DNA from: Gemmatimonadota bacterium
GTDB lineage: Bacteria; Gemmatimonadota; Gemmatimonadetes; Gemmatimonadales; GWC2-71-9
NCBI GenBank assembly: GCA_003223395.1
Contig: QHUZ01000034.1
Span: 78,930 to 142,929, forward strand
DNA length: 64,000 bases
Direction: 5' to 3'
This document shows positions 22,448 through 35,376 of this stretch, piece by piece; the first letter of the stretch is position 1, and every line of letters starts with the position of its first letter. A model generated the notes under the pieces. That model searched no databases. It was not told where the DNA came from and saw nothing but the letters and a program-made list of their open reading frames with translations. The position numbers and the translations under genes are program-made.

Positions 22448-23812
22448 ATGGCACGCGTAGACGTCTTGATGCCACAAATGGGTGAGTCGATCGCCGAGGG
22501 GACCTTGAGCAAATGGCTCAAGAAGGTCGGCGACCCGGTCAAGCGGGACGAGCCCCTGTTCGAGATCTCGACCGATAAGGTCGACGCCGAAATCCCTGCG
22601 CCGTCCGCCGGGGTGCTGGCGGAGATCAAGGTACAGGAAGGGCAGACCGTGCCGGTGCAGACGGTCGTTGGGGTCCTGGAAACCGAAGCGGGGGCCGCGG
22701 CATCCGCACCTGCCAAGCCGGAGCCGCCGAAAGCCGCTGCTCCAGCGCCACCCGCACCGAAGGCAGAAGCGCCGAAGACCGCTGCGGCGCCGCCGCCCCC
22801 TCCGGCCGACAGGCCGTCCGGCCGTCCGGCCGCCGCGACATCAGGCCGTCCGGCCGCCGGTGACGGTGGTGGCGTACAGACCGCCGAGCAACGCCTCCGC
22901 ACGAAGTCGACGCCGCTTGTTCGCAAAATCGCTGCCGAGCACAGCGTCGATATCTCGCGAATCCCCGGCAGTGGTTACGCGGGCCGCGTGACCAAACAGG
23001 ACATCCTGGGCTACATCGAACGAGCCCCGACCGCCCCGGGAGCCCCGGCTCCTGGCTCCCGACTCCCGGCTCCTTCCGGTCCGATCGAACATCCGGCCGT
23101 GGACGCGTGGCCGGGCGACCGCGTCGAGCCGTGGTCCAAGATCCGCAAGATCACCGCCGACCACATGGTGATGTCGAAGCGTGTGTCCGCGCACGTGGCG
23201 AGCTTTTTCGAGGTCGATTTCACGCGTGTCGCCCAGCTCCGCGCCCGGGCGAAGCAATCCTACGTCGATCGCGGGGTCAATCTCACGTTCCTCGCGTTCA
23301 TCGCGAAGGCGTGTGGCGAGAACCTCCGGAAGCATCCCATCATCAATGCCGCGGTGTCCGGCGACAGCACGATCTACCGTGCCGACGTCAACATCGGCAT
23401 CGCAGTGGCGCTCGACTGGGGCCTCATCGTGCCGGTGATCAAGCATGCCGACGAGTTGTCGCTGATCGGTATCGCGCGCGCCATCAACGATCTGGGGGAG
23501 CGCGCCCGCACCAAGAAGCTGCTGCCCGACGACATCCAGCGCGGCACGTTCACGATCACCAATCCCGGCGGGTTCGGACCGTTCGCCGGCATTCCCATCA
23601 TCAACCAGCCGCAGGTCGCGATTCTCGGCGTCGGCGCGATCGAGAAACGCCCCAAGGTTGTGACCGCCGACGGCACGGATTCCATCGCGATTCGGACGAT
23701 GGGGATGCTGACGATGTCCTATGATCATCGCGTCGTCGACGGTGCCGACGCCGACAAATTCCTGGCCGACGTGAAGCAGACGCTGCAGGAGTTTCCTGAG
23801 GGAGCGGTGTGA
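22448..23812 (+). CDS. dihydrolipoamide acyltransferase (E2) with lipoyl and E1/E3-binding domains
   Basis: Lipoyl motif EISTDKVDAEIPAP, an Ala/Pro linker, and the catalytic DHRVVDG. Confidence 0.9.
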   Translation: MARVDVLMPQMGESIAEGTLSKWLKKVGDPVKRDEPLFEISTDKVDAEIPAPSAGVLAEIKVQEGQTVPVQTVVGVLETEAGAAASAPAKPEPPKAAAPAPPAPKAEAPKTAAAPPPPPADRPSGRPAAATSGRPAAGDGGGVQTAEQRLRTKSTPLVRKIAAEHSVDISRIPGSGYAGRVTKQDILGYIERAPTAPGAPAPGSRLPAPSGPIEHPAVDAWPGDRVEPWSKIRKITADHMVMSKRVSAHVASFFEVDFTRVAQLRARAKQSYVDRGVNLTFLAFIAKACGENLRKHPIINAAVSGDSTIYRADVNIGIAVALDWGLIVPVIKHADELSLIGIARAINDLGERARTKKLLPDDIQRGTFTITNPGGFGPFAGIPIINQPQVAILGVGAIEKRPKVVTADGTDSIAIRTMGMLTMSYDHRVVDGADADKFLADVKQTLQEFPEGAV

Positions 23813-24129
23813 GCATGCCAAAAGTCCTGACCGCGGCGCGCGTGCGCGTGCCCACGCAGAACGAAACGGAGTACGTCAACACGCTGCGCGAGCTGAGTCA
23901 GTTCGCCGAAGCGCGCGGCCAGCGGATTTGGCTGTACCGCAACGCGAAGGATCCGCGGCTGTTCATCGAGTTTTCCGAGAGCCCGACCGAGATGTCGCAC
24001 CGCGCCCAGGCGTCCCGGCTCCCCGAAGAGATCAAGCTGGAGAAGCGTCTCCAGGCGCTCGCCACCTACGCGCCCGACGCCTGGGAGCTGTGGAGCGAGG
24101 TCCCCGTCGCCACCACCTCGCAGGCATGA
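23809..24129 (+). CDS. hypothetical protein (106 aa)
   Basis: GTGA overlap with the E2 stop; ATG 23815 is an alternative start. GC3 is very high. No motif recognised. Confidence 0.6.
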   Translation: MSMPKVLTAARVRVPTQNETEYVNTLRELSQFAEARGQRIWLYRNAKDPRLFIEFSESPTEMSHRAQASRLPEEIKLEKRLQALATYAPDAWELWSEVPVATTSQA

Positions 24130-24132
24130 GCC

Positions 24133-24402
24133 ATGGCCCGCCGCGAAGTTGACGTGGACGGTGAACGCTGGGAGGTCTACCCCTCGGGCCGCGTGACCGT
24201 GTACGGCCGCGACCAGTTCGGTCTCATCTTCGAGCACGGCACCGGCCCGCAGCGCCGCCGCCGCGTGACGCACTTCTCGCCGCTCGGCGCGCGCTCGCCG
24301 GACCGGGCCTTCCTGGAGCTCTCCGACCGCGAGCTGCTGGAGCTGTTCCGCCAGTCACAGCCGGCGTGGACCGCCCCCGAGGTCGACTACGCCGCACATT
24401 GA
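24133..24402 (+). CDS. hypothetical protein (89 aa)
   Basis: Starts 3 nt after the previous stop and has very high GC3. No motif recognised. Confidence 0.6.
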   Translation: MARREVDVDGERWEVYPSGRVTVYGRDQFGLIFEHGTGPQRRRRVTHFSPLGARSPDRAFLELSDRELLELFRQSQPAWTAPEVDYAAH

Positions 24403-25267
24403 CCTGCATTGCCATTCGACGGCCTCCGACGGTGAGTGTGAGCCGCCGGAAGTCGCGCGCCGCGCCCGCGCGGTAGATCTCGCGGCGATCGCGCTCACCG
24501 ATCACGACACCACGGATGGCGTGGCCGAGGCCGCGCACGAGGGCGCGAAGCTGGGCATCCGGGTGATCCCCGGATGCGAGTTCAGCGTGCGCGCGCCGTG
24601 GGGTGAGCTGCATGTGCTCGCCCTGTTTTTGCCGCACGACAGCGAACGGCTGCAGGGGTTCTTGCGCGACACCCGTGCCGCGCGCCGCCGCCGCGGCGAG
24701 CAGATCGTCGCCAAGCTCCAGGACCTCGGCGTGGCGATCGAGCTCGAGGACGTGCAGGCACAGCTTTTCGGAGGAGATGGCGGCGCCCTGGGACGGCCGC
24801 ATGTCGCGCGGGCACTCGTCGATTGCGGGGCCTGCGACACCATCAGTGACGCGTTCCGGCGGTACCTGGGCCGTGGCCGGGCTGCGTACGTCGAGAAGCC
24901 GCTGCCGAAACTCGGCGACGTCACCGCGCTCGTGCACGACGTGGGAGGGCTGACCGTCGCGGCGCACCTGGGCGATCATGGCACCGAGGCCCAGGTGCGC
25001 ATCTTTCAGGACCAGGGACTGGACTGCGTGGAAGTGCGCCATCCGAGTCATGCCCCCGCCATCGAGCAGCGGCTCACCCGCATCGCCGAGCGCTTGGGAC
25101 TTGGCATCACGGGGGGCTCGGATTGGCATGGAGAAAGCGAGTACGGGGAGTCGCATGCGCCGCTCGGCGGGATGCGCGTTCCCGACAGCTGGCTGGCACC
25201 GCTCGAGCATCGTCTCGAGCTCACAACGAGGCAACGGGATGAGCGAGCCGCTTCCGATCGGCAGTAA
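24398..25267 (+). CDS. PHP-domain metal-dependent phosphoesterase (TrpH/YciV-like); start codon non-canonical and unresolved
   Basis: The in-frame sequence IDLHCHSTASDG...IALTDHDTTDG (24398-24520) holds the PHP HxH and DHD metal motifs. The first ATG/GTG/TTG in this frame is GTG 24521, downstream of both. C-terminal GGSDWHG is present. Confidence 0.75.
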   Translation: MDLHCHSTASDGECEPPEVARRARAVDLAAIALTDHDTTDGVAEAAHEGAKLGIRVIPGCEFSVRAPWGELHVLALFLPHDSERLQGFLRDTRAARRRRGEQIVAKLQDLGVAIELEDVQAQLFGGDGGALGRPHVARALVDCGACDTISDAFRRYLGRGRAAYVEKPLPKLGDVTALVHDVGGLTVAAHLGDHGTEAQVRIFQDQGLDCVEVRHPSHAPAIEQRLTRIAERLGLGITGGSDWHGESEYGESHAPLGGMRVPDSWLAPLEHRLELTTRQRDERAASDRQ

Positions 25268-25676
25268 AGCCCCCGCGTTCAAAGCCCAGGCGTCGGACGG
25301 CCGGACCTACGCGCTCGGCGATCTCTTGAAAAGCGGCCCGGTCGCGCTCGTGTTCTATCCGGGCAACAATACCCCCGGCTGAAACCGCCAACTCTCCGCC
25401 GTGCGCGATGAGATCGCCAAGTTCCAAGCCGCCAGCATGCAGCCGTTCGGCGTCAACCCCGCGAGTGTGGACGGGCATCGCGGGTACGTCGAGAAGATGC
25501 AATTCAACTTCCCGCTGCTGTCCGATCCGGAGCGCACGATCGCCGGCGCGTACAACGCCCTCAAAGAGGACGGCAAAGGGATTCAGCGCACCGTCTATGT
25601 GATCGGCCGCGACGGCACCGTGCGCTTTGCACAGCGCGGCGCACCGCCCGTGGACGACATCGTCCGTGCCCGCTGA
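25239..25676 (+). CDS. Bcp/PrxQ-type peroxiredoxin with in-frame TGA (25380-25382) at the peroxidatic Cys position; candidate selenoprotein, or a pseudogene
   Basis: Same reading frame on both sides of the TGA. Upstream reads MSEPLPIGSKAPAF...VALVFYPGNNTPG; downstream reads NRQLSAVRDEIAKF...FNFPLLSDPERTIAGAYNAL...RTVYVIGRDGTV. Confidence 0.65.
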
Positions 25677-26388
25677 CCTGCGTGGCAAAGTCGCACTCGT
25701 CACCGGGGTCGGCCGGGTCGGACAAATCGGCCATGCCGTGGCGCGCGGCATGGGTCGCGCCGGCGCGAAGCTGCTGCTCGCCGACGTCAACGCCGTGGGG
25801 CTCGCGGATCGTGTCAAAGAGTTCGCGGCGGAAGGGATCACCGCCAAGGTCTCTGCCGGCGACCTGACCCAGCCCGACGCCGCGCGCGCGGCGGCGGCGG
25901 CGGCGCAGACGCAGTACGGCGGGCTCGATATCCTCGTGAATGTCGCCGGGGGGTTCTTCAGCTATGGGCCGTTCACGGAAGTAAAGCCCGAGATCCTCGA
26001 CCGCGAGCTGGCCGTGAACTTCAAGACCGCGTTCTACATGTGCCAGGCCGCCGTGCCATTGCTGCTGGCTCGCGGGGGCGGAGCGATCGTCAATTTCGCA
26101 TCGATCGCCGTCGTCCGCTCGCTCATGCATATGTCGGCGTACACTGCGGCGAAGTCGGCCGTTGCCGGGCTGACGCTCGAGCTGGCGCGCGAATATCGCG
26201 ACGCCGGCATCCGCGTGAACGCCGTCGCCCCGGCGACCGTGCGCACCGCCGATAACGTGGCCCAGATGGGGGAGAAGCAGCCGCTGGTCGAGCTCGACGA
26301 AGTCGTGAATACGGTGGCCTTTCTCGTGAGCGATGAGGCCCGCGCGATCACCGGCCAGATCGTCCCCATTACCGGGAAAGCGTACTAG
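25666..26388 (+). CDS. SDR family oxidoreductase
   Basis: GTG start gives (M)PADLRGKVALVTGVGRVGQIG. Contains a YTAAK catalytic Tyr/Lys pair. TTG 25627 is an alternative start. Confidence 0.8.
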   Translation: MPADLRGKVALVTGVGRVGQIGHAVARGMGRAGAKLLLADVNAVGLADRVKEFAAEGITAKVSAGDLTQPDAARAAAAAAQTQYGGLDILVNVAGGFFSYGPFTEVKPEILDRELAVNFKTAFYMCQAAVPLLLARGGGAIVNFASIAVVRSLMHMSAYTAAKSAVAGLTLELAREYRDAGIRVNAVAPATVRTADNVAQMGEKQPLVELDEVVNTVAFLVSDEARAITGQIVPITGKAY

Positions 26389-27119
26389 TGCGGCTCGAGG
26401 GCGCGGCCGCGCTGGTCACCGGAGCCGGGACGCGGATCGGGCAAGCGATCGCGATTGGGTTGGCGCGCTCCGGCTGCGACGTCGCGATTCACTACCACGG
26501 CTCAGCACAGGGCGCGGAGGAGACGGCGCGCGCGGTGCGGGCGGCAGGTCGGCGGGCCGAGCTGTTGCCGGCGGATCTCGCCGATGCGGCGGCGGCGCGC
26601 GGACTCGCGGATAAGGCCGCCCGCGCCCTGAAGCGACTCGACGTCGTGGTCAACTCTGCCGCGATCATGACGCGCGAACCGGTGGAAGCTGTCACCCCTG
26701 AGAGTTGGGACGCGACGTTCGACCTCAACCTGCGCGCGATGTTTTTCGTCTCGCAGGGGGCGATTCCGCATCTGCGGCGGGCCAAAGGGAAGATCGTCAA
26801 TCTGGCGGACATCGCGGGCATGGAACCATGGCCGGCCTATGTCCCGCATTGCGTCAGCAAAGCGGGCGTCATCATGCTCACCAAGGGGTTAGCCCGGGCG
26901 CTCGCCCCAGACATTGCCGTCAACGCGGTCGCGCCGGGAGCCGTGTTACTCCCTGAGCAGTGGGACGATGAGGCACGCAACCATGTTCGCGACACCACGC
27001 CGCTCCAGCGCCTCGGCTCGCCGGATGATGTCGTCGCAGCCGTGCGGTTCCTGTTGGCGGGCACCGATTACGCCACGGGCACAGTCCTGGTGATCGATGG
27101 TGGGAGACTCATCCGCTGA
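26388..27119 (+). CDS. SDR family oxidoreductase (TGxxxRIG type, pteridine-reductase/FolM-like)
   Basis: ALVTGAGTRIGQAIAIGL and YVPHCVSK (YxxxK). Junction with the previous gene is TAGTG. Confidence 0.75.
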   Translation: MRLEGAAALVTGAGTRIGQAIAIGLARSGCDVAIHYHGSAQGAEETARAVRAAGRRAELLPADLADAAAARGLADKAARALKRLDVVVNSAAIMTREPVEAVTPESWDATFDLNLRAMFFVSQGAIPHLRRAKGKIVNLADIAGMEPWPAYVPHCVSKAGVIMLTKGLARALAPDIAVNAVAPGAVLLPEQWDDEARNHVRDTTPLQRLGSPDDVVAAVRFLLAGTDYATGTVLVIDGGRLIR

Positions 27120-27853
27120 GAGACGTTGTTGTCGTCGGCGGCGGTTGCTACGGCACCTTCTACGCTTCGCAGCTGGCAAAAGCCAAGGCGCGCGGGAAGA
27201 CTGATTACCGGACCGTCATCGTCGTCGATCGAAATGCCAATTGCCAGGCGCGCCGCGAGCTTGGCGACGCGGACGATCGCCATTTTGTGACACGGGATTG
27301 GTCAGAGTTCCTCGACGACTGGCTTTCCGGCGCACAGGGCACGGCGCACGGCGCACAAGAGGATCACATTGTCCCATCCCCCCACATGCCTCATCTCATG
27401 TTCGAGTGGGTCCTGCGCCGTGCGCGCACCCGCTGGCCGAACCGCGCCGTCTCGGTCGAACCCGTTCCCGGAGACTTCCCGGCGCCCTACGACCGTCCCG
27501 GCGCAAATCACACGCGCTTCGTCTCGTTTGCGGATTGGATTTGTCCGACGCACTGCATCGAGCCGGCGCTCTGTCCCGCGATTGGCGCTCCGCGCACGTG
27601 GGAGATGGCCGACGCGGTGCGCGAGCTCGCAGAGCGGCTCCGGGCCGGCGGCCGGCCAGTGAGTGGGCCGGCGTTATTCGTGTGCAAGCATCACGTCTTC
27701 GGCGTCGGAATGTTCGCGGCCGATGCGGTGCGGGCGGGGGACCGCCTGGTCCAGGAAGCTGGCTCGGAAAGCGCCCCGGCCGAGATTCTAGTCGGGACGA
27801 TCTCGAGCTGTCACGGGGCGTTGAACCTGTTGACGCTGGGGCGTGCGCCGTGA
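27116..27853 (+). CDS. uncharacterised Rossmann-fold, Cys-rich protein; probable CTG start overlapping the upstream stop
   Basis: The frame reads (L/M)RDVVVVGGGCYGTFYASQLAKA..., a dinucleotide-binding GxGxxG, yet there is no ATG/GTG/TTG before 27287. CTG 27116-27118 overlaps TGA 27117-27119. Later motifs include WICPTHCIEPALCP. Confidence 0.6.
   Translation: MRDVVVVGGGCYGTFYASQLAKAKARGKTDYRTVIVVDRNANCQARRELGDADDRHFVTRDWSEFLDDWLSGAQGTAHGAQEDHIVPSPHMPHLMFEWVLRRARTRWPNRAVSVEPVPGDFPAPYDRPGANHTRFVSFADWICPTHCIEPALCPAIGAPRTWEMADAVRELAERLRAGGRPVSGPALFVCKHHVFGVGMFAADAVRAGDRLVQEAGSESAPAEILVGTISSCHGALNLLTLGRAP
27329..27356 (+). repeat. four tandem heptamers (GGCGCAC AGGGCAC GGCGCAC GGCGCAC) inside a CDS
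   Basis: Read directly from the sequence. It is translated as GAQGTAHGAQ. Confidence 0.8.
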
Positions 27854-27914
27854 GCCGTACGCCGTGCGCCGGAATTCACGCACTCCTGCGCACGGCGCAC
27901 AGCGCACGGCACAC
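27842..27914. repeat. structured junction element: two CGTGCGCCG direct repeats followed by four tandem inverted heptamers (TGCGCAC GGCGCAC AGCGCAC GGCACAC)
   Basis: CGTGCGCCG occurs at 27842-27850 and 27863-27871. Its reverse complement is embedded in the heptamer array at 27887-27914. The element fills the only sizeable gap (61 nt) in the operon. Confidence 0.75.
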
Positions 27915-28259
27915 GTGAATCTCGAAGATCGCCGCCGATACTTAGAGCACGCCCGGCAGCTGTTCAACACCGGAGAGTATTGGTTAGCGCACGAAGCGCT
28001 GGAAACAGTCTGGCGTTCTATTATTAAGGAAGACGAAGCGCTCGTGTGGCAGGGCCTCATTCAGGCCGCCGCCGCGCTGCTGCACCGGGCCCGCGGGAAC
28101 CGCCATGGCACCGTCGTCGTTGGAGCGGCGGCGCTGGGAAAACTGGCCGGGCCACAACGACCCGACATCGAGTTCGAAACCGTGGATTTTCGCGCGCATC
28201 TGGCGCGTGCCCTGGCGGGGGAGGGTGATCCTCCGCGACTGGAATTCCGGGACGCATGA
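27915..28259 (+). CDS. DUF309 family protein
   Basis: GTG start. ARQLFNTGEYWLAHEALETVW matches the FNxGxYxEAHExLExxW pattern I recall for DUF309. Confidence 0.65.
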   Translation: MNLEDRRRYLEHARQLFNTGEYWLAHEALETVWRSIIKEDEALVWQGLIQAAAALLHRARGNRHGTVVVGAAALGKLAGPQRPDIEFETVDFRAHLARALAGEGDPPRLEFRDA

Positions 28260-29227
28260 CGAACCGCACCGCACGCATGTATGACGTGATCATCGTTGGC
28301 GCAGGGCCGGCCGGGCTCTGCGCCGCGCTGTACGCCGGCCGTGGCATGCTCAACGCGGTCACGATCGAGCGCGGCGCGCCGGGTGGTGAGCTCCTCAATA
28401 CCGATCTCATCGAGGACTACATCGGCTTCGAGAGCATCAAGGGTTGGGAGCTCGCGCAGAAGATGAGCGAGCACGCGACAAAGTTCGGCGCCCAGATCGT
28501 GACCGACACCGTCGAGCGAATCACGAAGGACGCCGATGGCTGGTTCGATGTGCAGACGGCCCGCGGCGACACCTACCGCAGCCAGGCCGTGATCCTCACG
28601 GCGGGCGGCACACCGGTCAAGCTGGGAGTGCCGGGCGAAAAGGAGTTTGCGGGAAAGGGTGTGTCGTACTGCGCGGTGTGCGACGGCGCGTTCTTCAAGG
28701 GTGAGCGCCTCGCCGTCGTGGGGGGCGGCGACGCCGCCGTCGAGGAAGCCGATTATCTCACGCGCTACGCGAGCAAAGTGCACCTCGTGCACCGCCGCGA
28801 TGAATTCCGCGCCTCCAGGCTGCTGCAGGAGCGCGCCTTTGCGAATCCGAAGATCGAGGTCATCCGAAACACCGTGGTGCCCGAGATCGTCGGCAATACG
28901 AAGGGTGTCACGCACGCCGTGCTCGAAGACACCGCCACAGGTGAGCGCTCCAATCTCGATGTCGGCGGAGTGTTCATCTTCGCGGGATTCAAGCCCAATA
29001 CGCAGCTGGTCGAGGGCCACGTGGACCACGACGCCGGTGGGTATCTGATCACCGACAACCGCATGATGACGTCGATGGCGGGCCTGTTCGCCGCGGGTGA
29101 CGTGCGCAGCCAGGTCACCCGGCAGATTACGACCGCGGTCGGGGACGCGACCACCGCGGCGATCGCGGTCGAGAAGTACCTCAAGTCGCTGCACGAACAG
29201 CGGGGCGACGGCAAAGGCAAGCGGTGA
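28256..29227 (+). CDS. trxB: thioredoxin-disulfide reductase
   Basis: YDVIIVGAGPAGLCAALYA, the redox-active CAVCDG, and a second Rossmann segment VVGGGDAAVEEA. ATGA overlap with the upstream gene. Confidence 0.92.
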   Translation: MTNRTARMYDVIIVGAGPAGLCAALYAGRGMLNAVTIERGAPGGELLNTDLIEDYIGFESIKGWELAQKMSEHATKFGAQIVTDTVERITKDADGWFDVQTARGDTYRSQAVILTAGGTPVKLGVPGEKEFAGKGVSYCAVCDGAFFKGERLAVVGGGDAAVEEADYLTRYASKVHLVHRRDEFRASRLLQERAFANPKIEVIRNTVVPEIVGNTKGVTHAVLEDTATGERSNLDVGGVFIFAGFKPNTQLVEGHVDHDAGGYLITDNRMMTSMAGLFAAGDVRSQVTRQITTAVGDATTAAIAVEKYLKSLHEQRGDGKGKR

Positions 29228-29865
29228 AGATCGTTCAGATTCCCAACGGCGTATTCGCGGAGAACTGCTATCTCGTGGTTGACGAGCGAGCCGGCGAGTG
29301 CGCGATTGTCGATCCGGGCGAAGAGGCCGGATTGATCCTCCACAAGGTCAAGGAAACAGGCACGAAGCCGGTTGCCATTTGGCTGACGCACGCGCATCTC
29401 GACCACGTCCTCGGCGTGTCGCGAGTCGCGGCGGACACGGGGGCCCCCGTCTGGCTCCATCCCGCCGACCGGCCGCTCTATGACGCGGTGCCCGACCAGG
29501 CCGCGTGGTTTGGGCTCGCGCCCCCCGAACCGTTGCCGGCGCCTGACCAGGAGCTGGCCCACGGTGCACGCTTGACGGTCGGCGATGTGAGCTTCGAGGT
29601 TCGGCACGCGCCCGGGCACTCGCCGGGGAGCGTCTGCCTGGTGGGGCCGGGCGTCGCGCTGAGCGGTGATGTCCTGTTCGCCGGCTCGATCGGCCGAACC
29701 GACCTTCCTGGCGGTGACTTCGAGACCCTGATCGCCAGTATCGAGCGCGAGTTGCTCCCGCTTCCCGATGATACCATCCTCTACAGTGGACATGGACCCG
29801 AAACGACCATCGGACGGGAGCGCCACACCAATCCCTTCCTCACCGGCGTCTACCGGATCGGCTAA
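29224..29865 (+). CDS. MBL-fold metallo-hydrolase (glyoxalase II-like)
   Basis: WLTHAHLDHV (HxHxDH motif), 213 aa. GTGA overlap with the trxB stop. Confidence 0.85.
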   Translation: MKIVQIPNGVFAENCYLVVDERAGECAIVDPGEEAGLILHKVKETGTKPVAIWLTHAHLDHVLGVSRVAADTGAPVWLHPADRPLYDAVPDQAAWFGLAPPEPLPAPDQELAHGARLTVGDVSFEVRHAPGHSPGSVCLVGPGVALSGDVLFAGSIGRTDLPGGDFETLIASIERELLPLPDDTILYSGHGPETTIGRERHTNPFLTGVYRIG

Positions 29866-35291: not shown

Positions 35292-35292
35292 G

Positions 35293-35376
35293 TGCCGAAG
35301 GGGGGACTCGAACCCCCACGGGCTTGCGCCCACTGGCTCCTGAAGCCAGCGCGTCTACCAGTTCCACCACTTCGGC
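35293..35376 (-). tRNA. tRNA-Leu (anticodon CAG)
   Basis: The reverse complement folds by hand. Acceptor stem GCCGAAG/CTTCGGC. Anticodon stem CTGGC/GCCAG with loop TTCAGGA. Long variable arm GGGC-GCAA-GCCC. T arm GGGGG-TTCGAGT-CCCCC. Discriminator A. No encoded CCA. Confidence 0.9.

Follow-up and report, generated by a model that had tools for sequence, protein, structure and literature searches.

The question raised by this locus is whether a TGA that stands in frame at the peroxidatic position of a peroxiredoxin gene ends the protein or is read through and, if it is read, which residue it encodes. The gene lies on the forward strand of the window (the whole stretch of 64,000 nucleotides that was analysed) at 25239–25676. 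It begins with ATG at 25239–25241, which has a Shine–Dalgarno-like GAGG 7 nt to its 5′ side (25228–25231, + strand; read from the sequence alone), ends with TGA at 25674–25676 and is interrupted only by TGA 25380–25382; the open reading frame at 25401–25676 shares its frame with the segment that starts at ATG 25239. An earlier sequence-only reading of this DNA had given the same coordinates and the same single frame, and had described the read-through product as a 145-residue AhpC/TSA protein. The product matches the Pfam AhpC-TSA family (PF00578) along its full length (model positions 1–123 of 124, E = 5e-32) and contains the motifs FYPGNNTPG, FNFPLL and RTVYVIGRDG that had been listed for it; the coding assignment is based on this match and on the codon-position entropy given below. 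Gene callers had been expected to split such a gene, and the public calls do so, giving one piece of 47 and one of 91 residues; the GTG at 25401, which starts the C-terminal call, is the same in all 81 aligned sequences. Our answer is that the UGA at 25380–25382 (+ strand) in this 145-residue BCP/PrxQ-type peroxiredoxin is very probably translated as selenocysteine (Sec, U), at residue 48. This reading, which had also been put forward earlier, is supported by the orthologues (TGA in 155 of 160) and by a conserved RNA element after the TGA, and we infer that the residue inserted is Sec.

Alignment with solved structures places the TGA codon on the cysteine of the TPGC motif in BCP/PrxQ proteins, in agreement with its earlier placement on the catalytic cysteine of a Bcp/PrxQ protein. 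The best solved relatives of the peroxiredoxin are BCP/PrxQ chains (5enu, 3drn and 2cx3, and also 3gkk). Pro41, Thr45 and Arg117 do not vary in 81 sequences, U48 occupies the cysteine column of the motif P41xxxT45xxU48, and Arg117 aligns with the catalytic arginine (GIERS) of 5enu. The protein resembles E. coli Bcp (PRK09437) and these four structures in length, in the YPxxxTPGC context and in its catalytic arginine; unlike them, it has Sec in place of cysteine, contains no other cysteine and carries a serine at +5 from residue 48, where the resolving cysteine that is a feature of the atypical 2-Cys BCP proteins is absent. Judged by this pattern of residues, it would be a 1-Cys-type BCP and would not use the atypical 2-Cys mechanism. 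The read-through protein scores 64 bits against the NCBIfam Bcp equivalog PRK09437, below the cut-off of 140, and none of the selenoprotein-specific NCBIfam models reaches its own cut-off with it. The peroxiredoxin is, going by its alignments and model scores, of the BCP/PrxQ subfamily type, yet it is no equivalog of E. coli Bcp. The precedent that had been drawn from PrxU of Eubacterium acidaminophilum, in which Sec at the peroxidatic site was shown experimentally (Sohling et al. 2001, as cited in PMC13188914), holds for the site of the Sec, which the two proteins have in common, but not for the subfamily: the score against NF040737 (peroxi_PrxU) is 37 bits, below the cut-off of 270, that model has 233 positions against 145 residues here, and the nearest solved relatives of the present protein are all of the BCP/PrxQ type.

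Two sets of relatives were used to follow codon 48. The genome set holds 80 species representatives (GTDB) with 71–93% amino-acid identity to the window protein, labelled Gemmatimonadales, Gemmatimonadota or similar save for one 'uncultured bacterium'; the metagenome set holds 80 related soil contigs from a scan that was seeded with Cys-form proteins. The codon is TGA, in frame, in all 80 Gemmatimonadales species genomes (81 of 81 with the window) and in 75 of the 80 soil contigs, the other five having TGC or TGT, which makes 155 of 160 related genes when genomes and contigs are pooled. Homologues that are more distant or nested have cysteine (TGC/TGT) in this column. The alignment of orthologues that the sequence-only reading had proposed as a check thus came out on the side of a conserved TGA. 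In all 160 genes the frame is unbroken and one called piece leads into the other without an indel, while DNA identity among the 146 unique Sec-form genes goes down to 66%. In these 146 genes the entropies at the first, second and third codon positions are 0.50/0.39/1.20 over the 47 codons 5′ of the TGA and 0.45/0.33/1.16 over the 3′ part; such equal values on both flanks indicate that both halves are translated in frame under purifying selection. The terminator of the gene is itself TGA in 150 of the 160 copies, so TGA is still a genuine stop in these genomes, and the ORFs next to the gene are long and run without interruption; a reassignment of TGA was ruled out on these grounds. A search of 5.8 billion proteins gave, among the matches listed, full-length homologues with at most 74% identity, 71 of 73 of which have TPGC-NRQ, and listed closer relatives (84–95%) solely as 91-residue C-terminal fragments; the full-length Sec form was absent among the top matches listed from that collection.

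The 30 nt that follow the UGA (25383–25412, + strand; AAC CGC CAA CTC TCC GCC GTG CGC GAY GAG), which we propose as the SECIS element, are frozen at the nucleotide level. The mean third-position entropy of codons 49–58 is 0.15, compared with 1.05 for the 36 codons elsewhere that likewise encode an unvarying amino acid (Mann–Whitney p = 6e-6). The codon for Gln51 is CAA in 78 cases and CAG in 2, whereas the other glutamine codons of the same genes are CAG in 308 cases and CAA in 36. This CAA (window 25389–25391) is fixed although no predicted fold pairs A25391, and the 9-nt spacer between UGA and hairpin is thus constrained for a reason that goes beyond the hairpin model. The peptide NRQLSAVRDE is also kept in the Cys forms, and the amino-acid conservation in this stretch is therefore a feature of the protein. 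The DNA of the Cys forms behaves otherwise: among the metagenome contigs with a Cys codon, L082 and L083 have drifted to CGG CAG CTG TCG TGC GTG CGG, L086 and L087 have further changes (these four showing both synonymous and non-synonymous ones), and L084, which has TGT, retains 20 of the 21 hairpin bases. As synonymous sites drift once the codon is one for cysteine, the constraint goes with the UGA, and it acts on the RNA of the 30 nt that follow. An oddity was seen between L012 and L039 (10001–10477 in each): their peroxiredoxin genes share 100% of the 336 nt that begin with the TGA, have only 67% identity over the 141 nt 5′ of it and are unrelated farther upstream; the L039 contig stops 45 nt past the gene. 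The cause would be a chimeric assembly or else a recombination event that joined the two at the invariant 33-nt element.

Within this stretch lies a small hairpin at 25392–25412 (+ strand), CUC-UC-CGC(CGUGC)GCG-AY-GAG, in which CUC (25392–25394) pairs with GAG (25410–25412) and CGC (25397–25399) with GCG (25405–25407) on either side of a 2×2 internal loop, UC/AY. The apical loop CGUGC (25400–25404, + strand) begins 17 nt past the UGA and has G and then U at loop positions 2 and 3. None of the six pairs changes in any of the 133 unique sequences; the one hairpin base that varies, 25409 (U/C), belongs to the internal loop, and the RNAalifold consensus of 126 unique sequences contains this core hairpin as its sole helix. 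A conserved stem-loop downstream of the TGA was one of the things that the earlier reading had asked for, and it is found here rather than at 25405–25417, where that reading had placed a hairpin, GCGAU/AUCGC. The latter does exist in the window copy (−3.4 kcal/mol) and has its GCG arm in common with the conserved hairpin, but its middle pair is found in only 56 of 133 sequences; it was rejected as a functional element, as its pairs break in many relatives.

The published bSECIS criteria (PMC13188914) are a loop of 3–9 nt with G in the first two loop positions, a spacing of 16–37 nt, a stem of 4–16 bp and an MFE of −7.5 or lower. The 5-nt loop, with G at position 2 followed by U, and the 17-nt spacing fit this model. 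The stem of the core hairpin is 3 + 3 bp around the internal loop, and the core by itself has an energy of −5.4 kcal/mol, which becomes −7.9 to −8.8 kcal/mol only when non-conserved outer pairs are counted. Folding 25375–25460, which had been suggested as a check, gave no signal: the MFE of the single window copy is no better than that of shuffled sequences (z = +0.48). In a simple implementation, the structural criteria are passed by 35% of the 1,611 TGA triplets on both strands of the window (66% GC) and discriminate little on their own in GC-rich genomes. As the hairpin never varies (133 of 133), compensatory changes cannot support the fold. With an MFE not beyond shuffles, a pass rate of 35% and a helix without covariation, the bSECIS match is weak evidence by itself; the weight of the SECIS case rests on the freeze at synonymous sites and its relaxation in the Cys forms. 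Further copies of the hairpin core CGCCGTGCGCG were looked for and gave 30 chance matches, none of them behind a TGA. Other conserved in-frame TGAs, sought in the window and all loci, were just antisense-frame artefacts and junctions between adjacent genes. One pair of small ORFs at window 23809–24402 (106 and 89 residues, no Pfam match) has a single TGA (24127–24129) between its members, which are in the same frame; the public calls give two genes of 104 and 89 residues, and the arrangement suggests two neighbouring genes more than it does a recoding site.

The same alignments bear on how the Sec and Cys forms are related. In a rough neighbour-joining tree an outer clade that is all Cys (∼65% identity) lies outside a large Sec clade, and several Cys leaves are nested within the Sec clade. 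The Cys-codon forms L082, L083, L084, L086 and L087 are found among the closest relatives of Sec forms, with the element after the codon decayed to varying degrees, and they look like recent Sec-to-Cys reversions. The nested Cys leaves and their decaying hairpins suggest, within the limits of a short alignment, an early change from Cys to Sec followed by repeated reversions.

The genes for Sec decoding were sought in the window and at the 80 loci with ARAGORN and with tblastn, using E. coli SelA, SelB and SelD as queries (sequences that were validated against NCBIfam). The window and the 1.29 Mb of related loci (10-kb flanks) yielded no match to selA, selB or selD and no tRNA-Sec. As to the window, this is in line with the absence of selA, selB, selC and selD reported earlier, which Rfam, ARAGORN and tblastn together bear out. 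A search of the 64-kb window at the Rfam gathering threshold, together with ARAGORN, detected no tRNA-Sec, only tRNA-Leu(CAG); this gene, at 35292–35376 on the − strand, is the lone tRNA or Rfam match of the window.

Since the machinery was not found in the window and related loci, it is fair to ask whether the UGA is read as something other than Sec. It might be recoded to cysteine or another residue by a Sec-like tRNA charged with cysteine or by a UGA suppressor tRNA, in which case the hairpin would either signal to a SelB-like factor or stimulate read-through. The conserved UGA, the translated flanks and the constrained RNA demand read-through and not a specific residue, and Mukai and co-workers reportedly described, in 2016, Sec-to-Cys recoding by tRNA-Sec-like tRNAs in some bacteria. 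We nevertheless consider such recoding improbable, since the UGA sits at the peroxidatic cysteine, where Sec and Cys are classically exchanged in the Sec-Prx family (PMC13188914, PMC1794560), the position of the hairpin and its GU loop match SECIS elements of the SelB type, and the nested TGC/TGT revertants with decaying hairpins show that a cysteine codon is available. That a costly UGA is kept in ∼150 lineages when a cysteine codon is available argues for a residue that cysteine cannot replace.

More improbable still is that the two called pieces are the real products, so that an N-terminal peptide of 47 residues and, from GTG 25401, a C-terminal protein of 91 residues would be made and would assemble or act independently. 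The public annotations give exactly these pieces and GTG 25401 is unvarying, but the latter is accounted for by the GUG of the hairpin loop. The pieces lack the peroxidatic residue and residues 49–54 of the active-site helix, which leaves no peroxidase chemistry, and Thr45, Arg117 and the PxxxT motif are nevertheless unvarying; the frame also continues from one piece into the other, without an indel, in 160 of 160 genes. A nonsense pseudogene made by a single TGC-to-TGA knockout, which the sequence-only reading had named as the alternative, has next to no probability left: TGA and TGC are one base apart and the fold of the single window copy is unremarkable, but it is refuted by the presence of TGA in 155 of 160 relatives, whose DNA differs by as much as 34%, by purifying selection on both flanks and the frozen 30-nt element after the codon, and by an intact gene with TGA across 80 species.

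If Sec is inserted, as we prefer, the hairpin at 25392–25412 would be a bacterial SECIS element that brings SelB, loaded with GTP and Sec-tRNA(Sec), to a ribosome that has paused at the UGA, and delivery by SelB would insert Sec in place of chain release. With Thr45 and Arg117 to activate it, the Sec48 selenolate would then reduce peroxides and become a selenenic acid. A protein without any cysteine, with serine at +5, would be a 1-Sec enzyme that needs an external thiol, and thioredoxin, for example, might recycle it, being held reduced in turn by the co-located TrxB.

The thioredoxin-disulfide reductase gene trxB that had been noted downstream is real (28256–29227, + strand; TIGR01292 at 365 bits, above its cut-off of 343). 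TrxB lies 1.9–2.95 kb to the 3′ side of the UGA in 66 of the 80 genome loci and is possibly part of the reductant system of the peroxiredoxin. A short-chain dehydrogenase (SDR; Pfam adh_short) follows the peroxiredoxin gene at 25666–26388 (+ strand); its GTG start, taken from the public calls, overlaps the 3′ end of the peroxiredoxin gene by 11 nt, and this first SDR is directly 3′ of the gene in 78 of the 80 genome loci. The surrounding cluster is co-directional and conserved. On the 5′ side it consists of 2-oxoacid dehydrogenase E1-beta and E2, small unknown ORFs and a PHP-like phosphatase, which has a weak match, under its cut-off, to 3′,5′-nucleoside bisphosphate phosphatase; then come the Sec-Prx, two SDRs, AF_1314_C, DUF309, TrxB and a glyoxalase-II-like MBL hydrolase. 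The part from the PHP-like phosphatase to the MBL hydrolase corresponds to window 24521–29865.

Peroxiredoxins with Sec (Sec-Prx; PF00578, T/SxxU motif) are an established family in the bacterial selenoproteome surveys of Zhang, Gladyshev and co-workers, in which the 'Prx, PF00578, TxxU' family grew from 12 selenoproteins in 2006 to 91 in 78 organisms in 2016, the described members being mostly from anaerobes, namely Deltaproteobacteria and Clostridia (PMC1794560, PMC5029168, PMC13188914). The present protein has in common with them the AhpC/TSA fold, coexisting Cys homologues and, on our reading, Sec for the peroxidatic cysteine in PxxxTxxU and a SECIS in the coding region right after the UGA, a likeness in described features (the listed example of the family is WP_011365628.1); in contrast to that mostly anaerobic family, the present clade is in soil Gemmatimonadales. 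The hairpin has its place within the ORF, a few nucleotides after the UGA, in common with the fdhF-type SECIS of E. coli and the bSECIS model (PMC13188914, Fig. 2A), as well as an apical loop of small size that has a G followed by a U towards its 5′ side, 16–37 nt from the UGA. It is much shorter than an fdhF-type SECIS (3 + 3 bp with a 2×2 internal loop, −5.4 kcal/mol), has no sequence similarity to it and differs in that an unpaired A (25391) on the 5′ side of its stem is under constraint. The element is also unusually rigid, with one variable base in 33 nt (UGA and 30 nt) over 146 genes.

Our literature search found no paper connecting Gemmatimonadota with selenocysteine or selenoproteins, and the phylum is not listed in the supplements of the selenoproteome surveys that were searched. 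BSepDB (2026; 57,630 selenoproteins from 16,621 species; PMC13326102) may already include the genes of this clade. The Gemmatimonadales gene is a new, unannotated addition to the established Sec-peroxiredoxin family. Its importance lies in its breadth across a soil order, in a very small and rigid SECIS candidate and in a natural series of Sec/Cys revertants.

Gemmatimonadales are a lineage that is usually regarded as aerobic. A wider proposal, which we put forward tentatively and hold to be rather doubtful, is that this soil clade, throughout the order, keeps a whole Sec-decoding apparatus largely for one 1-Sec peroxiredoxin, whose UGA it would read by means of a SECIS that is unusually small and rigid (a hairpin of 21 nt and a fixed 9-nt spacer). 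Were it true, such retention across the order would run against the rarity of selenoproteins in aerobes, as aerobic bacteria rarely retain them according to a recent review (PMC13188914), and the hairpin would be a natural minimal SECIS. The gene calls are split, the full-length Sec form is absent from the top matches and no selenoprotein-specific NCBIfam model reaches its cut-off with it, with the result that an abundant soil antioxidant enzyme is invisible in functional profiles; the 33-nt motif TGAAACCGNCARCTCTCCGCCGTGCGCGAYGAG is a ready-made search pattern for its re-annotation. If the reading is confirmed, the clade would be a source of numerous natural Sec/Cys pairs, some of them recent revertants with a decaying SECIS, in which the retention of Sec can be studied, and peroxide defence in a major soil phylum would draw on selenium as a micronutrient.
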